The notes below the pieces were generated by a model. It did not search any database. It was not told where the DNA came from and saw only the letters and a program-made list of their open reading frames with translations. From Anaerolineae bacterium (lineage in GTDB: Bacteria > Chloroflexota > Anaerolineae > B4-G1 > SLSP01): 64,000 nucleotides of DNA. Position 1 is the first letter of the stretch. Each line of letters starts with the position of its first letter. The stretch covers positions 29,458-93,457 of the forward strand of contig JALXBP010000117.1 in assembly GCA_026991395.1 (NCBI GenBank), given 5' to 3'. The translations under genes were made by a program, and so were the position numbers. Shown one piece after another: positions 4,469 to 14,469 of the stretch.

Positions 4469-4610
4469 CAGAGGGGATGGGAAGGGAAGATCGCCCATCG
4501 CGGCAAGTCGGACCGAGATGAGGAGGGCTTGTCCCCTGAGGGGAGCGATTTACCATTGGAGGGCGTATCATTTTCGGCCCGGCACCGTTAGAGCCTATGA
4601 GGGAGCAGCA

Positions 4611-5162
4611 ATGCATGCAATAGACGAACGCGACCTCATCCGCCGCGCACAAGAGGGAGAGCGGGAGGCCTTCGCCGAACTCTACGACCGCCACTACCTC
4701 GCCATCTACAACTACTTCTACTACCGGCTGGGCGACCGGGAGACGGCGGAGGACCTCACCGCCGATCTCTTCGTGCGCATGGTGGAAAAGATCGATCGAT
4801 ACCGCGATCGAGGGCGGCCTTTTCTGGCGTGGCTCTACACGATAGCCCGCAACCTGCTGACCGACCATTACCGGCGTCGGCGCGGCGAGGCGGTTCCGCT
4901 GGACGACCTGCCGCTTTCCGACGGCAAGAACCCGCCGACGGAAGTCGAGCACCGCCTGGCCGTGGATTGCCTGCATCGCGCTCTGCGCCACCTGACGGCC
5001 GATCAGCAACAGGTCATCATCAATCGCTTCCTGGAGAAACGATCGATCAACAAGGTCGCCGAGCTTTTGGGCAAGACGGAAGGCGCCGTCAAGGCCATGC
5101 AACATCGGGCCTTGGCCGCGTTGCGACGTGCGATCGAGAAGGAAGGATGCTATGAGCCGTAA
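4611..5162 (+). CDS. ECF (sigma-70 family, group 4) RNA polymerase sigma factor
   Basis: ATG 4611 preceded by GGGAGCAGCA (GGAG) RBS. Region 2 (FAELYDRHYLAIYNYFYYRLGDRETAEDLTADLFVRMVEKIDRY) and region 4 HTH (KRSINKVAELLGKTEGAVKAMQHRALAALRRA). The listed ORF start 4518 is upstream shadow. Confidence 0.85.
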   Translation: MHAIDERDLIRRAQEGEREAFAELYDRHYLAIYNYFYYRLGDRETAEDLTADLFVRMVEKIDRYRDRGRPFLAWLYTIARNLLTDHYRRRRGEAVPLDDLPLSDGKNPPTEVEHRLAVDCLHRALRHLTADQQQVIINRFLEKRSINKVAELLGKTEGAVKAMQHRALAALRRAIEKEGCYEP

Positions 5163-6237
5163 AATAGATGCGCTGCTGGCCGAATGCCTGGCCGCTATGG
5201 AGGCCGGGGCCTCGCCGGAAAGCTGTTTGACACGCCACCCGGAGGCCGCGGAGGCACTGCGCCCCTTGCTGGAGACGTGGCTGGCCCTCCAAACGGTGCC
5301 GCAAGCTCCGCCACCCCATCCCGCCGCCGTTGCACACGGCAAGGCGCGTATGCTGGATGCCGTGGAGCGGCGGGCTGTCCGCAAACGCCGCGTCTTCCCG
5401 GGCACGCTTCTCGGAACGCTGCGCATGCCGCAATGGGCTACAGCCGTAGCGATGATCGTGGTACTGCTCCTCGGCATCGCAGGGACGACGAGGGCCTCGG
5501 CCTCGGCGCTTCCCGGCGACCCGCTCTATCCCGTCAAGACGGCAACGGAACAGGTGCGCTTGCTGCTCACCTTCTCCCCCGAAGCCCGGGCCGCCCTGGA
5601 AGCCGAATTGCAGGCCGAGCGCCTGGAAGAGGTCGCCGCCGTCCTCGCCGAAGGCCGAACGGTCGGCGTCCACTTCCGGGGGACGCTGACAAGCCACGAT
5701 GCGGAAACGTGGACGGTCGCCGGTTACACCATCCGGCTCACGACAACGACGACCGTCGAGGGAGCCCCCATCGACGGGGCAACGGTCGAAGTCTGGGCCA
5801 GGACACAGAGCGACGGCTCACTGGTCGCCGAGCGGCTCACCGTGCTGCCCACCCCCTCTCGTCTCGGCGGTACGGGACTATCGCCGGTCGAAACGCCGCC
5901 CCGGCCAACGCGGGCACCCCGACGCCATGCCGAGCAGGCGACGCGAACGCCCACCCCCTCCCCGACAATGACACCGACGCCCACGCCTGCGCCCACGTCA
6001 ACGGCGACGCCCACACCGACGGCCTCCTCATCCGGCGGACACGAAAGCGGCGGCTCCGATGGACATCACGGCGGCGAGACAGCGCCGCCTCCGACCTGCG
6101 AACAGGGACATACGCCGACTCCGCCTCCGGGATGGACGCCGACGCCCCATCCCACCCACGAGCCGACACGGACACCGACGATGATGCCGACGCCGACGCA
6201 CGACCATTCCGGCGGGGGCCATGGTCATCGGCCCTGA
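5152..6237 (+). CDS. anti-sigma factor: cytoplasmic Cys/His N-domain, one TM helix, extracytoplasmic domain with Pro/Thr/His-rich tail
   Basis: ATG 5152 overlaps sigma stop (5160-5162) after GAAGGAAGGA RBS. N-term MSRKIDALLAECLAAMEAGASPESCLTRHPEAAEAL (Cys/His zinc-finger-like), TM helix ATAVAMIVVLLLGIAG, DUF5667-like ectodomain, C-terminal TPTPSPTMTPTPTPAPTS...GHESGGSDGHHGG...HDHSGGGHGHRP tail. Classic sigma/anti-sigma gene pair. Confidence 0.7.
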   Translation: MSRKIDALLAECLAAMEAGASPESCLTRHPEAAEALRPLLETWLALQTVPQAPPPHPAAVAHGKARMLDAVERRAVRKRRVFPGTLLGTLRMPQWATAVAMIVVLLLGIAGTTRASASALPGDPLYPVKTATEQVRLLLTFSPEARAALEAELQAERLEEVAAVLAEGRTVGVHFRGTLTSHDAETWTVAGYTIRLTTTTTVEGAPIDGATVEVWARTQSDGSLVAERLTVLPTPSRLGGTGLSPVETPPRPTRAPRRHAEQATRTPTPSPTMTPTPTPAPTSTATPTPTASSSGGHESGGSDGHHGGETAPPPTCEQGHTPTPPPGWTPTPHPTHEPTRTPTMMPTPTHDHSGGGHGHRP

Positions 6238-6339
6238 ACTTCTCCCGCGAGCAGGCCGACGGGGTACGACAAGCTGCTCCCTCCCCCCCCCGTCGGCCTC
6301 TCTCCTCGTCCGAAAAGCACAATCAGTACCAAATTCCTA

Positions 6340-6367
6340 TTGTTTTCATAAGGGAATTGTGTACAAT
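6340..6367 (+). promoter_or_regulatory. sigma70-like promoter (TTGTTT-16-TACAAT) for the Flp pilin gene
   Basis: AT-rich island (6300-6414) in a 70% GC background; -35 TTGTTT 6340-6345, -10 TACAAT 6362-6367, 16-nt spacer; SD TAGGAGGTGA at 6401-6410 then ATG 6415. Confidence 0.45.
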
Positions 6368-6414
6368 GAGGACAGGTTTAGGCTAAGACATCAAATTCGT
6401 TAGGAGGTGAAACT

Positions 6415-6567
6415 ATGTTGTACTTGCCGCGTGAGGAAGGTCAGGGCTTGGTCGAGTATGCGTTGATTCTGGTGCTCATCGCCATCATCGTCATCGTCAT
6501 CCTGCGTGTGTTGGGCCAGAAGGTCAGCACCACGTTCTCCCAGATCAGCAGCGGCCTGGGCGGCTAA
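6415..6567 (+). CDS. flp: Flp-family type IVb pilin (Tad pilus major subunit)
   Basis: 50 aa, not in ORF track (<60 aa). MLYLPREEGQGLVEYALILVLIAIIVIVILRVLGQKVSTTFSQISSGLGG: canonical Flp prepilin leader with G/xxxEY cleavage motif (EEGQG-LVEYALIL) and hydrophobic helix. Strong SD AGGAGGTGA, 4-nt spacer. Confidence 0.8.
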   Translation: MLYLPREEGQGLVEYALILVLIAIIVIVILRVLGQKVSTTFSQISSGLGG

Positions 6568-6597
6568 GCCGGTCCTGGTGCTTCCGGTCAACAGCAA

Positions 6598-6625
6598 GAC
6601 CCCGCTTGTGCGGGGTCTTTGCTTT
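6598..6625 (+). terminator. rho-independent terminator after flp
   Basis: GACCCCGC-TTGT-GCGGGGTC perfect 8-bp stem followed by TTTGCTTTCC. Confidence 0.6.
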
Positions 6626-6642: not shown

Positions 6643-7815
6643 ATGCGACGACAACGGGGCACAGGCGAGGCCATAGCGATATGGCTCGGCTTCCGATTGG
6701 CAAGCTGGGCGGCGGCCTACCTCGGCTGGCGGCAGACCGGCCACGCCCTCAGCGCCGAAAGGTGGGGGGCGCGCCTGTGGGAGATGCTCGTTACGCCGTG
6801 GATACGATGGGACGGCCTGCTCTACCTGCGCATCGTCCGCGACGGCTATCGCCCCGACAACGGCACGACGCAATTCCACCCCCTCTATCCGATGGCCGCG
6901 CGGGCGCTCTGCCGCCTCGGCGTCGCGCCGGAGGTCGCCCTGCTCCTCGTCAGCGGGGGGGCCGCGTTAGGACTGGCGCTCGTCGTGCATCACCTCGTCG
7001 CCCGCACGAGCGACGAACCGACGGCGACCGCCTCCCTGCTCACCCTCTTCCTCTGGCCGCTGGGATGGGTGCTCTACGCACCCTACAGCGAAAGCCTCTT
7101 CCTGCTGATGGCGGCGCTGACCTTCCTCTGGAGCGCAGAGAGGCGCTGGTGGGCGGCATCGCTGGCCGCCTCCGCCGCCGTGCTCACGCGCCAGCAGGGC
7201 ATCTTCCTCCTCATCGTCCTCGGCATCGCCTACCTGCGGGCGGAAGGCGGCGGGCTGCGGGCATGGCTCAACCGCCGTGCGCTCGCCCTCACCTTGCCCC
7301 TGCTGACGATGGCCGCCTGGATCACTTACCGAACCTACCGGCTCGATCACGCGGCTTTCGATTTCAGTTCGCCGCACGCCTTCATCTACTCCGTGCTCAT
7401 CTCGCCCAACGCCGTCAAAGTCGTGCCGACCCAGCGCTTCCTTGCGCCTTGGCATGCTCTCCGGTTGGCGGTAGAATACCTCGTGAGCCATTGGCCTGCT
7501 ACCGACCTCGCCTCCGACCTGACGATGGCGGCTTTGACGTTGCTGCTGATGGCGGCCACCTGGCGATGGATGAACACGGCATACCGGCTTTACAGTGTCA
7601 CGATAGCTGTCGTCGCCTTCAGCTACTTCACCGGCGACGCGGCGGGCCTCCTCGCACCCTACATGGGCTTGCCGCGCCATCTGATGCTCGCCCTGCCGCT
7701 CTTCCTGATGGCCGGGCGGCTTTCCGCCGGTGAGCGTCGGCTGCTGTGGGCCGTCTCGACGATAGCTTACGGCTGGTTCGTCCTGCTGTTCGAAGCCCAT
7801 GCCTGGGTGCCATGA
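6643..7815 (+). CDS. polytopic membrane glycosyltransferase, GT-C fold (PIG-V/mannosyltransferase-like, WDGxxYLxIxxxGY motif)
   Basis: ATG 6643 after GGAGACGG; upstream TTG 6619 lies inside the terminator hairpin and was rejected. More than 9 predicted TM helices. Lumenal-loop motif RWDGLLYLRIVRDGY typical of PIG-V/GT-C mannosyltransferases. Family assignment is from memory and not verified. Confidence 0.6.
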   Translation: MRRQRGTGEAIAIWLGFRLASWAAAYLGWRQTGHALSAERWGARLWEMLVTPWIRWDGLLYLRIVRDGYRPDNGTTQFHPLYPMAARALCRLGVAPEVALLLVSGGAALGLALVVHHLVARTSDEPTATASLLTLFLWPLGWVLYAPYSESLFLLMAALTFLWSAERRWWAASLAASAAVLTRQQGIFLLIVLGIAYLRAEGGGLRAWLNRRALALTLPLLTMAAWITYRTYRLDHAAFDFSSPHAFIYSVLISPNAVKVVPTQRFLAPWHALRLAVEYLVSHWPATDLASDLTMAALTLLLMAATWRWMNTAYRLYSVTIAVVAFSYFTGDAAGLLAPYMGLPRHLMLALPLFLMAGRLSAGERRLLWAVSTIAYGWFVLLFEAHAWVP

Positions 7816-7840
7816 CCCTCCGCGAAGGGAAGGTAACGAG

Positions 7841-8800
7841 ATGAAGATTTCGGTCGTCGTGCCTGTGATGAACGAGGAGACCAATCTCCCCCTCCTCTAC
7901 GAGGAGATGAAGCCCGTTTTGGACGAGATCGCGCCGGGCGAACACGAGATCATCTTCGTCGATGACGGCAGCACCGACAACACCTTCGCCGTCTTGGCCG
8001 ACCTGGCCCGTGGGGACGAGGCCATCACGGTCATTCAGTTCCGCCGCAACTTCGGCAAGTCGGCAGCCCTCTCCGCCGGTTTCGAGCGGGCCAAGGGGGA
8101 GATCGTCATCACGATGGACGGCGATCTCCAGGACGATCCGGCGGAGATTCCGCGCTTCCTCGCCACCCTGGAGGAAGGCTACGATCTCGTCTCCGGCTGG
8201 AAGTACCCGCGGCTCGATCCGCCGGGCAAGACCTGGCCCTCGCGTCTCTTCAACTTCGTCACGGCCACCGTCTCCGGCGTCCACCTGCACGATTTCAACT
8301 GCGGCTTCAAAGCCTACCGACGTCAGGTCATCGAGGAGATCGCGCTCTACGGCGAACTGCACCGCTTCATCCCCGTGCTGGCGCACCAGAAGGGCTATCG
8401 CGTAACGGAGATCAAGGTTCACCACCGCCCGCGCCGCTTTGGGCGCTCCAAATTCGGGATGAAGCGGCTGGCGCGGGGCTTCTTCGACTTCCTCACGGTT
8501 ACGCTGCTCGGCGAATATCGGTGGCGACCGATGCACCTCTTCGGCTGGCTGGGGCTGCTTTCCGGTACGGCGGGCTTCATCATCAACCTCTACCTCGCCT
8601 ATCTCTGGTTCACCGGCCATCGCCCCATCGGGACGCGACCACTGCTCACGTTGGGCGTGCTCCTCATCACCGTAGGCGTGCAGTTCTTCACCATCGGCCT
8701 GCTGGCCGAGATGTTCGCGATGAGCCAATCGCGGTACGTCCGCCCTTACGCCATCCGCCGCATCGTGAAGGGGAAAGAGGATGAACAACGCGAAGCGTGA
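7841..8800 (+). CDS. GT2 polyprenyl-phosphate glycosyltransferase (Dpm1/GtrB/ArnC-like; polyprenol-phosphate-mannose/-hexose synthase)
   Basis: 319 aa; MKISVVVPVMNEE...IIFVDDGSTDNT...ITMDGDLQDDP (DXD), C-terminal two TM helices. RBS GAAGGGAAGG, ATG 7841. Confidence 0.85.
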   Translation: MKISVVVPVMNEETNLPLLYEEMKPVLDEIAPGEHEIIFVDDGSTDNTFAVLADLARGDEAITVIQFRRNFGKSAALSAGFERAKGEIVITMDGDLQDDPAEIPRFLATLEEGYDLVSGWKYPRLDPPGKTWPSRLFNFVTATVSGVHLHDFNCGFKAYRRQVIEEIALYGELHRFIPVLAHQKGYRVTEIKVHHRPRRFGRSKFGMKRLARGFFDFLTVTLLGEYRWRPMHLFGWLGLLSGTAGFIINLYLAYLWFTGHRPIGTRPLLTLGVLLITVGVQFFTIGLLAEMFAMSQSRYVRPYAIRRIVKGKEDEQREA

Positions 8801-9395
8801 TTACGGCAACTGGCAGAAATACAACAACCCCAATCCCCTCCAGCGCTTCCTGATGCGCCGCTTCCTGCAGCAGGCGGCGGCGTGGATCGCCCCGCTGGAG
8901 GTGGAGCGGGTGCTGGACGCGGGCTGCGCGGAGGGCTTCGTAACCCGTGCGCTGCTGGAGGGCGGCGCGCTCTCGCGGGCGACGCTCCTCGTCGGCGTCG
9001 ATCTCGACCTGGAGGCGATGGCCCGCGGCGCGGCGATCTCCCCGCAACTGCGCAAGTTCCCCGCCAGCATCACGGCGCTCCCCTTCGCCGATGACAGCTT
9101 CGACCTAGTGATGGCGACGGAGGTCCTGGAGCACCTGCCCGATCCGCGCCTGGGGCTGCGCGAGGTGAAGCGCGTCTCCCGCCGCTACTGCCTGCTCAGC
9201 GTGCCTCACGAGCCGTGGTTCCGCGCGATGAACTTCCTGCGCGGCAAGCACCTGCACCGCTGGGGGAACGATCCGGAGCACCTGCAGAACTGGACGCTTT
9301 CGGCTTTCCGGCGCTTCGTCGCAGGGGAATGCACGGTCATCGCCATTCGCAGCCTGCTCCCCTGGACGCTCGTCCTCGCACGCAAGGCCGTATGA
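8781..9395 (+). CDS. class I SAM-dependent methyltransferase
   Basis: 204 aa; motif I VLDAGCAEGFVT, motif post-I LLVGVDLD, FDLVMATEVLEHLPDP. Overlaps the GT2 gene by 20 nt. Confidence 0.8.
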   Translation: MNNAKRDYGNWQKYNNPNPLQRFLMRRFLQQAAAWIAPLEVERVLDAGCAEGFVTRALLEGGALSRATLLVGVDLDLEAMARGAAISPQLRKFPASITALPFADDSFDLVMATEVLEHLPDPRLGLREVKRVSRRYCLLSVPHEPWFRAMNFLRGKHLHRWGNDPEHLQNWTLSAFRRFVAGECTVIAIRSLLPWTLVLARKAV

Positions 9396-11302
9396 CCGAT
9401 CGACAGAGCCGTCGGCTGCTCCTCGGCCTGATGGCGCTCGCCGCCGCCCTCTTCGCCTGGCTGAGCATCGCCCGCTACCGCGGTTACAACACGGCGATGG
9501 AGGACATCGGCAATATGGCGCAGGCGATGTGGAGCGGGACGCGGGGCCGTCCGCTGCTCTTCACCTACTTTTGCCATCCGGTGAGCCGATTGGGGCTGCA
9601 CGCCGAGCTGATCTACCTGCTCTTCGTGCCGCTCTACGCCATCGCCCCTTCGCCGATGACGCTCCTCGTCGTCCAGGCGGTGCTCTTCGCCGCCGGAGCC
9701 TGGCCGCTCTACCGACTGGCGCGCCGCCATCTGGCGAGCGAGACGGCGGCGCTGGCCGTCGTCCTCATCTACCTCCTCTATCCGCTGGCCGACAACGCCG
9801 TCCTCTTCGATTTCCACGCCGACACGATCGCCATGCCGCTCTTCTTCTTCGCCCTCGAGGCCCTCGACCGCGGCGAGGTGCGCCGCTACGCCTTCTGGAT
9901 CGCCCTGGCGCTGGCGAGCAAGGTCTACGTCGCCTACGCCGTCGCCCTCCTCGGCGGGCTGCTCTTCGTGCAGGGCAAACGGCGGGTCGGACTGGGGACG
10001 ATCGCCGCAGCCTTCGCGTGGGGCGCGACCGCCTTCTTCCTCGTCAAGCCGTGGTTCGCCTCGCGCTACGGCTTGCCCGTGCAGAGCTACGACAGTTACG
10101 CAGGCTACTACTTCGGGAAAACGCTCGCGACGCTGGGCGCAACGTGGGCCGAGCGCCTGCTGATGGGGCTGCTCGTCCTCCTGCCGCTCCTCCCCGCCGC
10201 CAAGGCCGCCCCGTGGCACTTCCTCACCGTCGCTCTCTCCATCGCCCCCGTGCTCCTCAGCTCGAGCCCCGGCCCAAGCTACTCCTACAAGTACCATCAT
10301 TACGCCCTCACCATCCCCTTCATCGTGATGACCATCCTCGCCGTTGCGGAGACGATGCGCCGCCGCGGTGAGCAACTGGCCGCCTTCCCCGCCTGGCGCA
10401 TCTTCCTGCTGACGATGCTCATCATCACCGTGGGGCTGAATATCGAACTCAGCGACACGCCGCTCAGCCCGGCCTTCTGGCGCGCCGAGTACGGGCACGG
10501 CCTCGACCCGTGGAAGTACGGACGCACGAGCCGCGACGAGGTGAAGGACGCCTTCCTGCGGCCGATTCCCGACGATGCGGCGCTCTTCGCGACCAACTTC
10601 CTTGCCCCGCACCTGGTCAACCGGGCGACGCTGTGCACGATGATCCCCGCCGCGCCGCCGCCGCCGCCGGATTACGAAAGGCGGCTGCTCGCGGTCGATG
10701 AGGCCGTCTTCGATGCGCTCTTCGACTACAACGTCTCCACGCCGGTTACGGGGCTGGTGGCCATTCCCGCCACCTACCTGAGGCGCTACCTCGACCATCC
10801 AGAATGGCAGGTCGTCGCAGCCGATGACGGCCTCGTGCTGCTGCGGCGCGATGCCCCTCCCGATGAGGTACTCCCGCAGAGCGTTACCCACACCCTCGCG
10901 ACCGCCCCGCCCGTCCAGCGGAGACCGCTGGGGGAGGGCGTCTCGCTGGTCCAAGCGGAGATCGCGCCTTTGGGCGGACGCCGCTTCGCCTGGCGGACGG
11001 TGTGGTACGCCGAGGAAGGGGAGCAGGCCCGCCCGCCGCTCTTCGCCGTCTCGCACCTGCAGGGCGTCGAGAACGGACGCATCCTCCATCTCCCCACACT
11101 GGCGCTCTACCCCTGCGAGGAGTGGGAGGCCGGCTCGCTGATCACGGAGACCTTCACCGTCGTCATCCCCGATCGCATCCCCGCAGGCCGCTACGAGGTC
11201 GCCGTCGGCCTCTACCGCCTGGACGATCCCTTCGCCTACGCAACCGACGAACGCAGCCGCCTCGGCGACATCGTTCCCATCGGCTCCATCGAGGTGCCCT
11301 GA
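9392..11302 (+). CDS. DUF2079-family polytopic membrane protein (putative GT-C glycosyltransferase)
   Basis: ATGA overlap with methyltransferase stop. MTDRQSRRLLLGLMALAAALFAWLSIARYRGYNTAMEDIGNMAQAMW...HPVSRLGLHAELIYLLFVPLYAIAPSP matches the DUF2079 N-terminal signature as I remember it. About 11 TM helices plus about 250-aa C-terminal soluble domain. Confidence 0.75.
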   Translation: MTDRQSRRLLLGLMALAAALFAWLSIARYRGYNTAMEDIGNMAQAMWSGTRGRPLLFTYFCHPVSRLGLHAELIYLLFVPLYAIAPSPMTLLVVQAVLFAAGAWPLYRLARRHLASETAALAVVLIYLLYPLADNAVLFDFHADTIAMPLFFFALEALDRGEVRRYAFWIALALASKVYVAYAVALLGGLLFVQGKRRVGLGTIAAAFAWGATAFFLVKPWFASRYGLPVQSYDSYAGYYFGKTLATLGATWAERLLMGLLVLLPLLPAAKAAPWHFLTVALSIAPVLLSSSPGPSYSYKYHHYALTIPFIVMTILAVAETMRRRGEQLAAFPAWRIFLLTMLIITVGLNIELSDTPLSPAFWRAEYGHGLDPWKYGRTSRDEVKDAFLRPIPDDAALFATNFLAPHLVNRATLCTMIPAAPPPPPDYERRLLAVDEAVFDALFDYNVSTPVTGLVAIPATYLRRYLDHPEWQVVAADDGLVLLRRDAPPDEVLPQSVTHTLATAPPVQRRPLGEGVSLVQAEIAPLGGRRFAWRTVWYAEEGEQARPPLFAVSHLQGVENGRILHLPTLALYPCEEWEAGSLITETFTVVIPDRIPAGRYEVAVGLYRLDDPFAYATDERSRLGDIVPIGSIEVP

Positions 11303-12798
11303 TGCGACGCGCCGCCTTCGTGCCCACGCTCGACCGGCTCTGGCTCATCGTCGTCCTCGCCTTCCTCCTCTTCTACGCCTCCATCGTGCCCCAGCCGCCC
11401 AACGATCTCTGGTGGCACCTGCGCATCGGTCGGCTCATCGTCGAAAGCGGGCACATTCCCCGGACCAACCTCTTCGCCTGGACCTTGCCCGCCGACACGC
11501 CCTTCACCTACGCCGCCTGGCTGGGGGAAGTCTGGCTCTACCTGCTCCACGCGGCGGGCGGCGTCGCGCTGCTCCTCTTCAGCCGCACCCTCATCGTCGG
11601 CATAGCCTTCTGGCTCACGGCGATGGAGGCGGAGCGTCGGAGCGGCTCGGCGCGGATCGCGGCGATGGCGACGCTCCTCCTCGGGCTGATGACCTTCAAC
11701 AACCTCATCGTGCGCACGCAGATGTGGTCCTGGCTGCCCTTCGTGCTGATCCTCCGCCTCCTGCGCCGCTACGGCGACGGCGAGGTTCCACCGCGGCGAC
11801 TGGCGGCGATGCCGCTGCTCATTGCGCTGTGGAGCAACCTGCACGGCGCATTCGTGCTCGGCCTGGTGCTGGGGGGGCTCGTTGCGCTCGGTGAAAGCTG
11901 GCGATGGCTGCGACGGCCCGCCGAACGCCCCTTCGCCCGCCTGAAGGCGCTCTGGCTGGCCGTGGGAGCCTCGGCGCTCGCCGTGATGGCCAATCCGCGC
12001 GGGGCGGGCCTCTACCGCTACGTCCTGAACCTGCTGGGCAGTGCGCCCGTCCAGCAACTGATCGTCGAGTGGCAGTCGCCGACGCCGCACGGCATCGCCA
12101 ACACGACCTTCTTCGCCGTCGTCCTGGGCCTGCTGCTCCTCTTCGCCTTTGGCCGTCGCCGCCTCGGCCCGACGGACGGGCTGCTGCTCGCCTTCTTCCT
12201 GTGGATGGCGTGGGGAAGCCAACGGAGCGTCCTCTGGTTCGGCTTCGTCGCCGCGCCCATCCTCGCCGAGCAGGTCGCCGCGCTCCTGCCCTCGCGCCTG
12301 CTCCACGCCGACGCTCCACGCAACGCCCTCAATCTCGTGCTTGCCCTCCTCGTCTGGCTCCCCGTGCTCCTCGTCCAGCCGTGGTGGGTGGAGGAGATGC
12401 CGCTCCCTGCCACGTACCGGGCGCAGGTCTGGCACGGCACGGAAGCGGGACCGCTGCTCGACCGCCACACGCCCGTCAAGGCGGTGGCCTACCTCCGCGA
12501 CCATCCCGGCGGGCGGCTCTTCAACGAGATGGGCTACGGCAGTTACCTCATCTGGGCGCTGCCGCAGCAAAAGGTCTTCATCGACCCCCGCGTGGAGCTT
12601 TTCCCCTACGAGATGTGGCTCGACTACGCCGCCATCTCCCACGGCGTGCGCTACGATCGGCTCCTGCAGGACTACGGCGTCGATCGGCTCCTCATCGACC
12701 GTGAGTTGCAGCGCGATCTTTCGCTTTCCCTGGCCGAGGATCGGGAGTGGAAGCTGGTCTACAGCGACGAGGTCGCCGAAATCTGGCAACGCCGCTGA
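11302..12798 (+). CDS. polytopic membrane protein, uncharacterised GT-C-like family (paralogue A)
   Basis: ATG 11302 overlaps the previous stop by 1 nt. N-terminal motif NDLWWHLRIGRLIVESGHIPRTNLFAWTLPADTPFTY. At least 11 TM helices plus C-terminal domain (LFNEMGYGSYLIWALPQQKVFIDPRVELFP). Paralogue of the convergent gene 12799..14289. Confidence 0.7.
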   Translation: MRRAAFVPTLDRLWLIVVLAFLLFYASIVPQPPNDLWWHLRIGRLIVESGHIPRTNLFAWTLPADTPFTYAAWLGEVWLYLLHAAGGVALLLFSRTLIVGIAFWLTAMEAERRSGSARIAAMATLLLGLMTFNNLIVRTQMWSWLPFVLILRLLRRYGDGEVPPRRLAAMPLLIALWSNLHGAFVLGLVLGGLVALGESWRWLRRPAERPFARLKALWLAVGASALAVMANPRGAGLYRYVLNLLGSAPVQQLIVEWQSPTPHGIANTTFFAVVLGLLLLFAFGRRRLGPTDGLLLAFFLWMAWGSQRSVLWFGFVAAPILAEQVAALLPSRLLHADAPRNALNLVLALLVWLPVLLVQPWWVEEMPLPATYRAQVWHGTEAGPLLDRHTPVKAVAYLRDHPGGRLFNEMGYGSYLIWALPQQKVFIDPRVELFPYEMWLDYAAISHGVRYDRLLQDYGVDRLLIDRELQRDLSLSLAEDREWKLVYSDEVAEIWQRR

Positions 12799-14289
12799 CT
12801 ACGGCCCCTCGCGGCGGACGAAGATGACCGCCGCCTCGTCGGCATAGCGCTCCTCCCACTGCGGTGAGCGGCGGGCCACCTCCACCAGCGCCGGTTGCTC
12901 GACGGGGGAGAGCATCAAGGTCCGCACGCCGTAATGAGCCAGCCGCGCTTCCCAGTCGCAGTCGGCAGCCGAGATGCGCAGATAATCGCGCCACAGTTCC
13001 GGCGGATACAACTCGATGCGCGAATCGACGAAGACGGGGTAGTCGGGCTGCGCCGCCCAGATGAGGTAGCTGCCGAAAGGCATCGCGTGGAAAAGCTGCG
13101 GCGGCGGATGGTGCGCCAGGAGATAGTCGGTCGCCGCGACGGGCGTCTCCGGCGAGATGAGCGCCGCTTTCGGCGGGGGGAGCGGCAGCGCCGACTTGAA
13201 CCACGGCAGCGAGAGCACAGCCCCGGCCATCAGCAGGGCGGCGAAGGCGCGATTCAGCCACGGAGCGCCGCCCGCCTCCTCCGCCGCGGGGGACGAAGCG
13301 GCGAAGACGGCGGCAAGGTGGCGGGCAATCGGCACGGCCATCGCCAGCCCGAACCAGATCACCCCCCGCGAGGTCTTCAGGCCCAGCAGCCCGAAGAGCA
13401 GAAAGGCGCCGATCTCCGCGGGACGCGGACGGGAGGGGCTGAGCGCCAGCAGGGCGGCGGTCAGGAGCAGGCCGACGAGGAAGAGCGCACCGTTCCACGT
13501 CTGGAAGGTCGGCGGCGACCATTCGGGCACCAGGTGCTGGACGGCGGGATCGGTCGTCAGCGTCCGCAGGTACGCCACGATCCCCGCGCCGCGCGGATTG
13601 CAGAGGAGCGCCGTCAGGCCCATAGCCACCAGCGCGGCCAGCAGGGAGAGGCTCCCGCGGGTGAGCAGCCGTTCTCCGCGCCGCCACGGCGTCCACACCG
13701 CGTCGAGCAGGGCCAGGGCCACGAAGGCCATCCCGATGGGGAAGGTCCCGTGTGCGTTGACCCAGATCGCCATCAGAGGCACGAGGAGGAGAAGGCGGAG
13801 CGGCGAACCGTCGCGGCGGTGCTCCTCCAGGAGCCACAGCTCCAGCGCGGCGAGGAGGAAGGCGATGACCTGCGGGCGGACGTTCCAATCGTCCAGGCCA
13901 AGCGCCGCGGCGAAGAGCGTCGCGGCGGCCGCTATGCGCCAGGAGCGGCTCACCCGCTGCGCGGCAAGGAGCAGCGCGCCATAGGCCAGGGTGATCGTCA
14001 AGCTCTGCATCATCACGACGAGCGGTGCCCCGCCCGCACGGTAGAGGAGGTAGAGGAGCACCTCCATCAGCCAGAAAGCCTGGTAGGAGGGATAGGGCGT
14101 ACCCCGCATCGTGTAGGAGAAGGTGTCCACGGTGGGGATGCGGTGAGTCGCGACGATCTGGCGTCCAACGGCCATATGCCACCAGAAATCGTGGGGACGG
14201 ATAGGATGGGTATTGACAAAAACGAAAATTCCCGTCATAATGGTTATAGCCCAGAGATGAGCCAGTGATGGATGAGTCGTCTTCTTCAT
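12799..14289 (-). CDS. polytopic membrane protein, same family as 11302..12798 (paralogue B)
   Basis: 496 aa; HDFWWHMAVGRQIVATHRIPTVDTFSYTMRGTPYPSY and C-terminal HAMPFGSYLIWAAQPDYPVFVDSRIELYP align motif-for-motif with paralogue A. Stop codon (rc of 12799-12801) abuts the stop of paralogue A (12796-12798). Confidence 0.7.
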   Translation of the reverse strand: MKKTTHPSLAHLWAITIMTGIFVFVNTHPIRPHDFWWHMAVGRQIVATHRIPTVDTFSYTMRGTPYPSYQAFWLMEVLLYLLYRAGGAPLVVMMQSLTITLAYGALLLAAQRVSRSWRIAAAATLFAAALGLDDWNVRPQVIAFLLAALELWLLEEHRRDGSPLRLLLLVPLMAIWVNAHGTFPIGMAFVALALLDAVWTPWRRGERLLTRGSLSLLAALVAMGLTALLCNPRGAGIVAYLRTLTTDPAVQHLVPEWSPPTFQTWNGALFLVGLLLTAALLALSPSRPRPAEIGAFLLFGLLGLKTSRGVIWFGLAMAVPIARHLAAVFAASSPAAEEAGGAPWLNRAFAALLMAGAVLSLPWFKSALPLPPPKAALISPETPVAATDYLLAHHPPPQLFHAMPFGSYLIWAAQPDYPVFVDSRIELYPPELWRDYLRISAADCDWEARLAHYGVRTLMLSPVEQPALVEVARRSPQWEERYADEAAVIFVRREGP

Positions 14290-14411
14290 TTCACATTCCG
14301 GAATAGTACCTTTTTCCTATTGCAAGAATTCAGTTAGAACAGTACAATGTGTTTGAAACCGGTTAGCCCGGTGAGTACCCTCCAAGGCTAATATTGGTTA
14401 CCCTCCTTTCA

Positions 14412-14450
14412 CAAAGATGCGCCCCTCCCCCCGGGCGCATCTTTGTGTTT
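14412..14450. terminator. 13-bp perfect hairpin (CAAAGATGCGCCC-N8-GGGCGCATCTTTG), likely terminator of sufCBD (minus strand), possibly bidirectional
   Basis: Seen directly; lies 20 nt beyond the sufD stop on the minus strand; followed on the plus strand by TGTTTG. Confidence 0.5.
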
Positions 14451-14469
14451 GAAGGCTCCACCTCCGTTC

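Follow-up and report, generated by a model that had tools for sequence, protein, structure and literature searches.

A positionally orphan flp gene of an Anaerolineae bacterium probably encodes an ordinary Tad pilin of the Chloroflexota

Sequence comparisons identify a 50-codon open reading frame in the window (the whole 64-kb stretch of DNA analyzed here), at positions 6415..6567 of the plus strand, as a genuine, strongly conserved and ordinary Flp-family (Tad) pilin gene of Chloroflexota. Quite likely, its product, MLYLPREEGQGLVEYALILVLIAIIVIVILRVLGQKVSTTFSQISSGLGG, is a type IVb/IVc pilin that serves as the major subunit (Flp) of a Tad pilus in this Chloroflexota (Anaerolineae-like) bacterium. 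A Flp prepilin gene had been proposed at this position in the initial annotation, and the peptide indeed matched the Flp_Fap profile (PF04964) with 34.7 bits, above the cut-off of 32.2 (E-value 1.5e-8, profile positions 10-45 of 46), and aligned with the Tad pilins 8u1k and 8u2b in PDB; a comparison of the 50-aa peptide with the NCBIfam profiles yielded no match. A database search with the protein retrieved 5504 homologs, with PF04964 present in all among the matches listed, and the exact protein was found on at least 23 public contigs. The codon-usage score of this frame, trained on the neighboring genes, is positive. By itself, the gene is of little consequence, being a routine member of its family, and in close relatives it already receives a name from annotation pipelines ("Flp family type IVb pilin [Anaerolineae bacterium]" in NCBI, "pilus assembly protein Flp/PilA" in JGI).

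The frame has evolved under strong constraint on the protein. Across the related loci, it contains 10 variable nucleotide sites, and the variation at all 10 is synonymous, whereas random changes would be synonymous in about 25% of cases. Genomes in which the neighboring proteins are only 62-88% identical encode 100% identical Flp, and four-fold degenerate sites are 78-83% identical in flp (24 sites only) vs 39-74% in the neighboring genes, a pattern that fits what would be expected of a highly expressed structural gene. The alternative that flp is a spurious open reading frame was rejected given the Pfam match, the codon score, the synonymous-only variation and the number of homologs.

The initial annotation also assigned to flp its own promoter (TTGTTT-16-TACAAT), a perfect Shine-Dalgarno sequence and a terminator, all of which held up in the footprint of 10 related loci and in folding. 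The consensus scanner missed both the promoter, where the -35 element shows only 3 of 6 matches, and the terminator, where the T-run is interrupted, so that these assignments rest on phylogenetic footprinting and folding. For the footprint, the flp region of the window was aligned with those of ten contigs encoding the exact protein (L001-L010). Invariant among all these sequences are a 32-nt upstream block, AATCAGTACCAAATTCCTATTGTTTTCATAAG (6322..6353, plus strand, as are all the signals described here), which holds the promoter motif discussed below and the -35 element TTGTTT (6340-6345); the -10 element TACAAT (6362..6367), separated from the -35 element by a 16-nt spacer; the sequence TAGGAGGTGAAACTATG at the Shine-Dalgarno site, AGGAGG (6402..6407), 7 nt before the ATG; and both stem arms and the T-tract of the terminator. 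The latter, an intrinsic terminator or attenuator (6596..6625), consists of a 10-bp GC-rich stem with a 4-nt loop, AAGACCCCGC-TTGT-GCGGGGTCTT (6596-6619), followed by TGCTTT, and the 3' region of flp folds better than 200 of 200 shuffled sequences (z = -3.5). Whereas these signals are invariant, the sequence of the promoter spacer varies at constant length, the hairpin loop varies as well (TTGT, CTGC, GCAC, CCCT), and the flanking sequence has diverged beyond recognition, a footprint of the kind left by a functional promoter, ribosome-binding site (RBS) and terminator. In our interpretation, flp would be transcribed from a conserved sigma-A-like promoter, with the -35 element embedded in a pilin-gene-specific element, and translated via the perfect Shine-Dalgarno sequence, with transcription ending mostly at the intrinsic terminator; the transcript would be short, about 250 nt, and probably abundant. 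The drop in GC content at flp (0.43-0.45 at 6276-6500 vs the window mean of 0.65) that had been noted initially is real, but it is not the sole AT-rich island in the window, with a second, deeper one located at 14151-14450.

Residues 13-46 of the peptide align with residues 4-37 of mature Caulobacter PilA (8u1k, 8u2b), and E14 falls on the mature Glu5; therefore, the prepilin is most likely cleaved at EEG|QGLVEY (G9|Q10), and the cleavage after G11 suggested in the initial annotation is probably off by two residues. The alignment predicts a 9-aa leader, MLYLPREEG (6415-6441, plus strand), and a 41-aa mature pilin, QGLVEY...GLGG (6442-6564, plus strand). The predicted site contains the class III motif (G/XXXXEY), with Gly at -1, Glu at +5 and Tyr at +6 (EEG9|Q10-G-L-V-E14-Y15), and this motif shows no variation among about 100 Flp homologs from Chloroflexota. 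The predicted mature form is that of a small pilin consisting of one hydrophobic helix and lacking a globular domain, aligning with the mature Caulobacter Tad pilin, a single helix of 45 residues (PMC10710030). In the pathway that we envisage, a TadV/CpaA-type class III signal peptidase would cut the prepilin between Gly9 and Gln10, which places Glu at +5, and the resulting 41-residue single-helix pilin would be polymerized by a TadA/CpaF-TadB-TadC machine presumably encoded in a distant tad locus elsewhere in the genome.

The promoter region of flp provides a link to the Tad genes. The motif GTAC-N7-CTATTG, located at 6326-6342 (plus strand), includes the TTG of the flp -35 element and occurs twice in the 64-kb window, compared to 0.01 matches expected. 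In 1.21 Mb of loci, searched on both strands, there are 27 matches, 18 of these no more than 200 nt upstream of flp; three more precede tadE-like or flp-like genes, and the four that were inspected among the rest are inside open reading frames. The motif precedes orphan and Tad-linked flp genes alike. That the orphan flp keeps the cis-element of Tad-linked flp and tadE genes argues for its continued membership in a Tad regulon, and we infer that flp is co-regulated with the Tad genes through this motif. A NarL-type regulator is a candidate for binding the motif because an RR/kinase pair adjoins flp in canonical loci. More broadly, upstream of Chloroflexota flp (loci L012-L091), two distinct conserved elements are discernible, namely, GTAC-N7-CTATTG upstream of the "MLYLPREEGQG"-type and related Flp, and a palindrome, TAACA-N5-TGTTA/TGTAA, that precedes a CTTG -35 element by about 20 nt in the Anaerolineales "MLFAPKEKGQG" type of Flp; in both groups, a NarL-type RR and a HisKA_3 kinase are often encoded directly upstream of flp. 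A pilin-specific promoter element that spans Chloroflexota orders offers a handle on Tad regulation in a phylum where Tad pili are the proposed motility organelle.

The absence of Tad genes from the 64 kb, claimed in the initial annotation, was confirmed by the Pfam scan and annotation of all ~48 predicted genes of the window, among which no T2SSE, T2SSF, Peptidase_A24, secretin, TadE/TadG, RcpC/CpaB or TadB/C was detected; no second flp was found in the window either. For a wider comparison, we scanned one genome per GTDB species, obtaining 80 flp loci, of which 77 are from Chloroflexota, clustered their open reading frames and annotated the representatives. In the canonical locus, the gene order is NarL-type RR, HisKA_3 kinase, flp, tadE, tadE, tadG, cpaB, tadZ (REC+ParA), cpaF, tadB, tadC, and flp homologs 60-70% identical to the one analyzed here head full tad operons; rcpC-tadZABC, tadEEG and flp have been reported in Chloroflexales genomes (PMC7332563). 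Of the 80 loci, about 13 have tad genes no farther than 10 kb from flp; the others have none in that range, although many of the contigs are short. A strong hairpin with a T-rich tail is present no more than 90 nt after flp in 74 of the 89 Chloroflexota flp genes, including those at the heads of tad operons. Taken together, these two counts indicate that a monocistronic flp, often far from tad, is the rule in this phylum. Thus, the description of flp as an orphan with its own terminator is correct by position but unremarkable, and the proposed uncoupling from the assembly machinery applies to position only because the shared Tad promoter motif argues that the functional coupling persists.

Several loci encode larger proteins with pilin-like N-termini. 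In L029 (2857 onward), L075, L079, L081, L087 and L088, proteins of about 140-170 aa combine a Flp-like N-terminus (…GQGLVEYAL…) with C-terminal extensions that are Ser/Thr/Gly-rich or Ig-like, and L029 also encodes a 909-aa protein with a TadE-like N-terminus. Their domain arrangement suggests that pilins or tip proteins with globular domains have been derived from Flp.

Downstream of flp, Pfam and homolog searches delineate a glycosyltransferase cluster at 6643..14289 that occupies both strands, with the last gene on the minus strand. It consists of the genes for a GT-C-like 390-aa protein (6643-7815), with homologs that contain Mannosyl_trans2, PMT_2 or GT87 domains, a GT2 (7841-8800), a methyltransferase (8781-9395), a DUF2079 protein (9392-11302) and two paralogous membrane proteins of 496-498 aa (11302-12798 on the plus strand and 12799-14289 on the minus strand), in agreement with the glycosylation-type downstream operon recognized initially. 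Sequence searches of PDB with the 390-aa and 498-aa proteins returned no match. In several Anaerolineae, a GT87 gene (GT2 in L044) and the genes for two related membrane proteins are located directly upstream of the RR-HK-flp-tad locus (L023, L024, L026, L031, L043, L044, L053 and L089). The membrane protein families next to flp in other loci (~490 and 537 aa, no known family) are related to each other, with an hhalign probability of 98%, and profile-profile comparison revealed no link among these families, the 496-aa family of the window, GT87, the 390-aa protein and DUF2079.

At the opposite end of the glycosyltransferase cluster from flp, motif, folding and conservation point to a candidate small RNA of about 95 nt on the plus strand (unit 14296-14452, promoter 14306-14349, transcript ~14355-14450). 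The second match to the flp-type motif GTAC-N7-CTATTG belongs to its predicted promoter, AGTACCTTTTTCCTATTG, followed by TACAAT 20 nt after the TTG. The predicted transcript comprises a 5' hairpin, a single-stranded stretch and a 15-bp terminator stem followed by UGUUU, and it contains ACCCUCC twice, in the 5' hairpin region and in the single-stranded stretch, which reads ACCCUCCUUUC; the two CCCUCC motifs are anti-Shine-Dalgarno-like. The unit folds with z = -6.75 relative to shuffled sequences and is 94% identical in L001-L009, compared to ~70% for the flanking proteins, with conservation stopping exactly at the T-tract. No Rfam family reached its gathering score anywhere in the window, with only sub-threshold matches near 14400, and an nhmmer search gave no match; the energies of the RNA duplexes predicted with the RBSs of the window were uninterpretable. 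A metagenome scan, run with a motif pattern that had one N too many before TCCTATTG, yielded 4 loci, of which 3 look like chance matches. The fourth, L101 (JGI contig Ga0180434_10048623, 60% GC; minus strand, 707 onward on the reverse complement), contains AGTACC-N5-TCCTATTG and a -10 element TACAAT; the unannotated sequence that follows includes AUCCUCCUUUCUGG and a hairpin of high GC content and may be related to the candidate from the window. This conserved, unannotated, small-RNA-like unit is a by-product of modest value.

Among the alternatives to the Tad-pilin interpretation, we considered the possibility that, in this clade, flp lost its link to Tad and now encodes a small membrane peptide involved, for example, in envelope biogenesis or in signaling together with the adjacent anti-sigma protein. 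Such a change of function would account for the lack of tad genes within the 64 kb of the window and in the 10 kb on either side of flp in all examined lineages with 82-100% identical Flp, and the unusual conservation of the protein is compatible with it. The intact class III cleavage motif, the retention of the promoter motif common to Tad-linked flp and tadE, and a sequence nearly indistinguishable from the Tad-linked Flp of L012 and L015 all argue against it, and so does the history of the anti-sigma neighbor, making this scenario very improbable. The neighbors in question are an ECF-type sigma factor (4611-5162, plus strand) and a DUF5667/DUF5666 anti-sigma-like protein (5152-6237, plus strand), both assigned by Pfam; the latter has a long C-terminal low-complexity tail rich in Pro, Thr and His (TPTPTPAPTSTATPTPT...HDHSGGGHGHRP), where the coding sequence diverges most among the related loci. 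The adjacency of flp to the sigma/anti-sigma pair, stressed in the initial annotation, is indeed present, but it is lineage-specific and not remarkable. The pair immediately precedes flp on the same strand in 11 of 11 loci of the window lineage, with three different contexts upstream of sigma, but adjoins flp in none of the 80 GTDB loci, and in sister lineages, in which Flp is 86-88% identical, genes for Maf and PBP2 take its place upstream of flp. This constancy within the window lineage is what would be expected if the regulon of the neighboring ECF sigma factor included flp, such that piliation is switched on under envelope stress. The sister lineages with Maf and PBP2, however, keep the same flp promoter motif, and the flp promoter itself is sigma-A-like. 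A candidate ECF-type element, GGAG-N-CGTATC, is conserved upstream of the sigma gene, where it has its single occurrence in the window (4542-4569, plus strand), and was not found at the flp promoter; located downstream of a TTGCAA/TTGTCC...TACTAT-like promoter, it may represent an autoregulated ECF-type promoter of the sigma gene. With neither a shared ECF promoter nor a conserved linkage apparent from these comparisons, control of flp by the ECF sigma factor appears weakly refuted and extremely improbable, and the position of flp next to the pair looks incidental.

The Tad-pilin interpretation is compatible with a further proposal, that flp is functionally coupled to the glycosyltransferase cluster, with read-through of the flp terminator expressing the GT-C and GT2 enzymes, which would attach O-glycans to the Ser/Thr-rich C-terminal part of Flp (STTFSQISSG) or build an envelope glycan that the pilus needs. 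We consider such coupling unlikely, even though the local arrangement is suggestive. Only about 5 nt separate the T-tract of the flp terminator from the RBS of the 390-aa GT-C-like gene, and neither sequence reading nor the consensus scan revealed a promoter-like site between the two genes, which makes read-through expression of the glycosyltransferase genes plausible; in L096 and L078, however, the gap after flp is 215-420 nt, leaving room for a separate promoter. Besides the window lineage, the P0172 sister lineage and locus L078, with Flp proteins 88% and 82% identical, respectively, have retained a GT-C/GT2 cluster after flp, and GT87 genes and the 496-aa family are found near flp/tad in L023, L024, L026, L031, L044, L053, L082, L089 and L090. 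Against the coupling, the P0174 sister lineage, with 86% Flp identity, has flp without the cluster; three homologs of the 390-aa protein, 42-45% identical, stand in polysaccharide or unrelated contexts without flp; and GT-C genes recur across the loci compared here, so that the adjacency could be due to chance. Pilin O-glycosylation loci are recognized by a Wzy_C-type enzyme adjoining the pilin and by conserved synteny; here, no Wzy_C/PglL-type oligosaccharyltransferase was detected in the window even at E <= 0.5, and the synteny is conserved only in part. In addition, the Caulobacter Tad pilus showed no modification density (PMC10710030). An extended and quite unlikely version of the coupling holds that, in this clade, flp has become the first gene after the promoter in an operon for envelope glycosylation, in which read-through would set a high ratio of pilin to enzyme, the GT-C and GT2 enzymes would O-glycosylate the Flp tail, and the unit would be bracketed by the two GTAC-N7-CTATTG copies, the second of which would drive the small RNA that could tune the regulon. 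If true, such a flp-headed operon would be a Tad-pilin glycosylation system of an undescribed kind, and the partly conserved synteny of flp and glycosyltransferase genes makes pilin glycosylation testable.

Comparison with known systems places the Tad-pilin interpretation of flp in context. The PilO/TfpO and PglL systems modify type IVa pilins via Wzy_C-type oligosaccharyltransferases. The arrangement in the window resembles those of Pseudomonas PilO/TfpO and Neisseria PglL in that membrane glycosyltransferase-type genes directly follow a pilin gene, but the neighbors here are GT-C (Gpi18/PMT_2/GT87-like), GT2 and DUF2079, with no Wzy_C. With Caulobacter crescentus PilA, the subunit of the Cpa/Tad pilus, the predicted product of flp shares membership in the Flp_Fap family, a class III signal peptide, Glu5-Tyr6 and a single helix of ~41-45 residues, whereas the cleavage context is G|ATAIEY in PilA and G|QGLVEY here, following a very short, 9-aa leader. 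Caulobacter pilA is located in the pilA-cpa locus, unlike flp of the window, which has no cpa/tad gene within 64 kb. In its position, flp is similar to Bdellovibrio flp3 and flp4 and one flp of Agrobacterium tumefaciens, which are likewise away from the tad operon, although in those bacteria, the tad operon and further flp copies have been identified, neither of which is present within the 64 kb here. Bdellovibrio flp genes located outside tad loci have been shown to be functional, with flp4 both expressed and needed for function (PMC5430801). In sequence, flp is similar to the Tad-linked Flp of L012, L015 and L044, from Anaerolineae/Ardenticatenales MAGs, which are 63-70% identical over the full length and have the MLYLPREEGQGLVEYAL N-terminus in common with it; their genes, too, are preceded by the GTAC-N7-CTATTG promoter motif and directly followed by a terminator. 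The difference is in the surroundings: in these three loci, flp is preceded by the NarL-type pair and followed by tadE-tadE-tadG-cpaB-tadZ-cpaF-tadB-tadC, whereas in the window, the same type of pilin gene is preceded by the sigma/anti-sigma pair and followed by the glycosyltransferase cluster.
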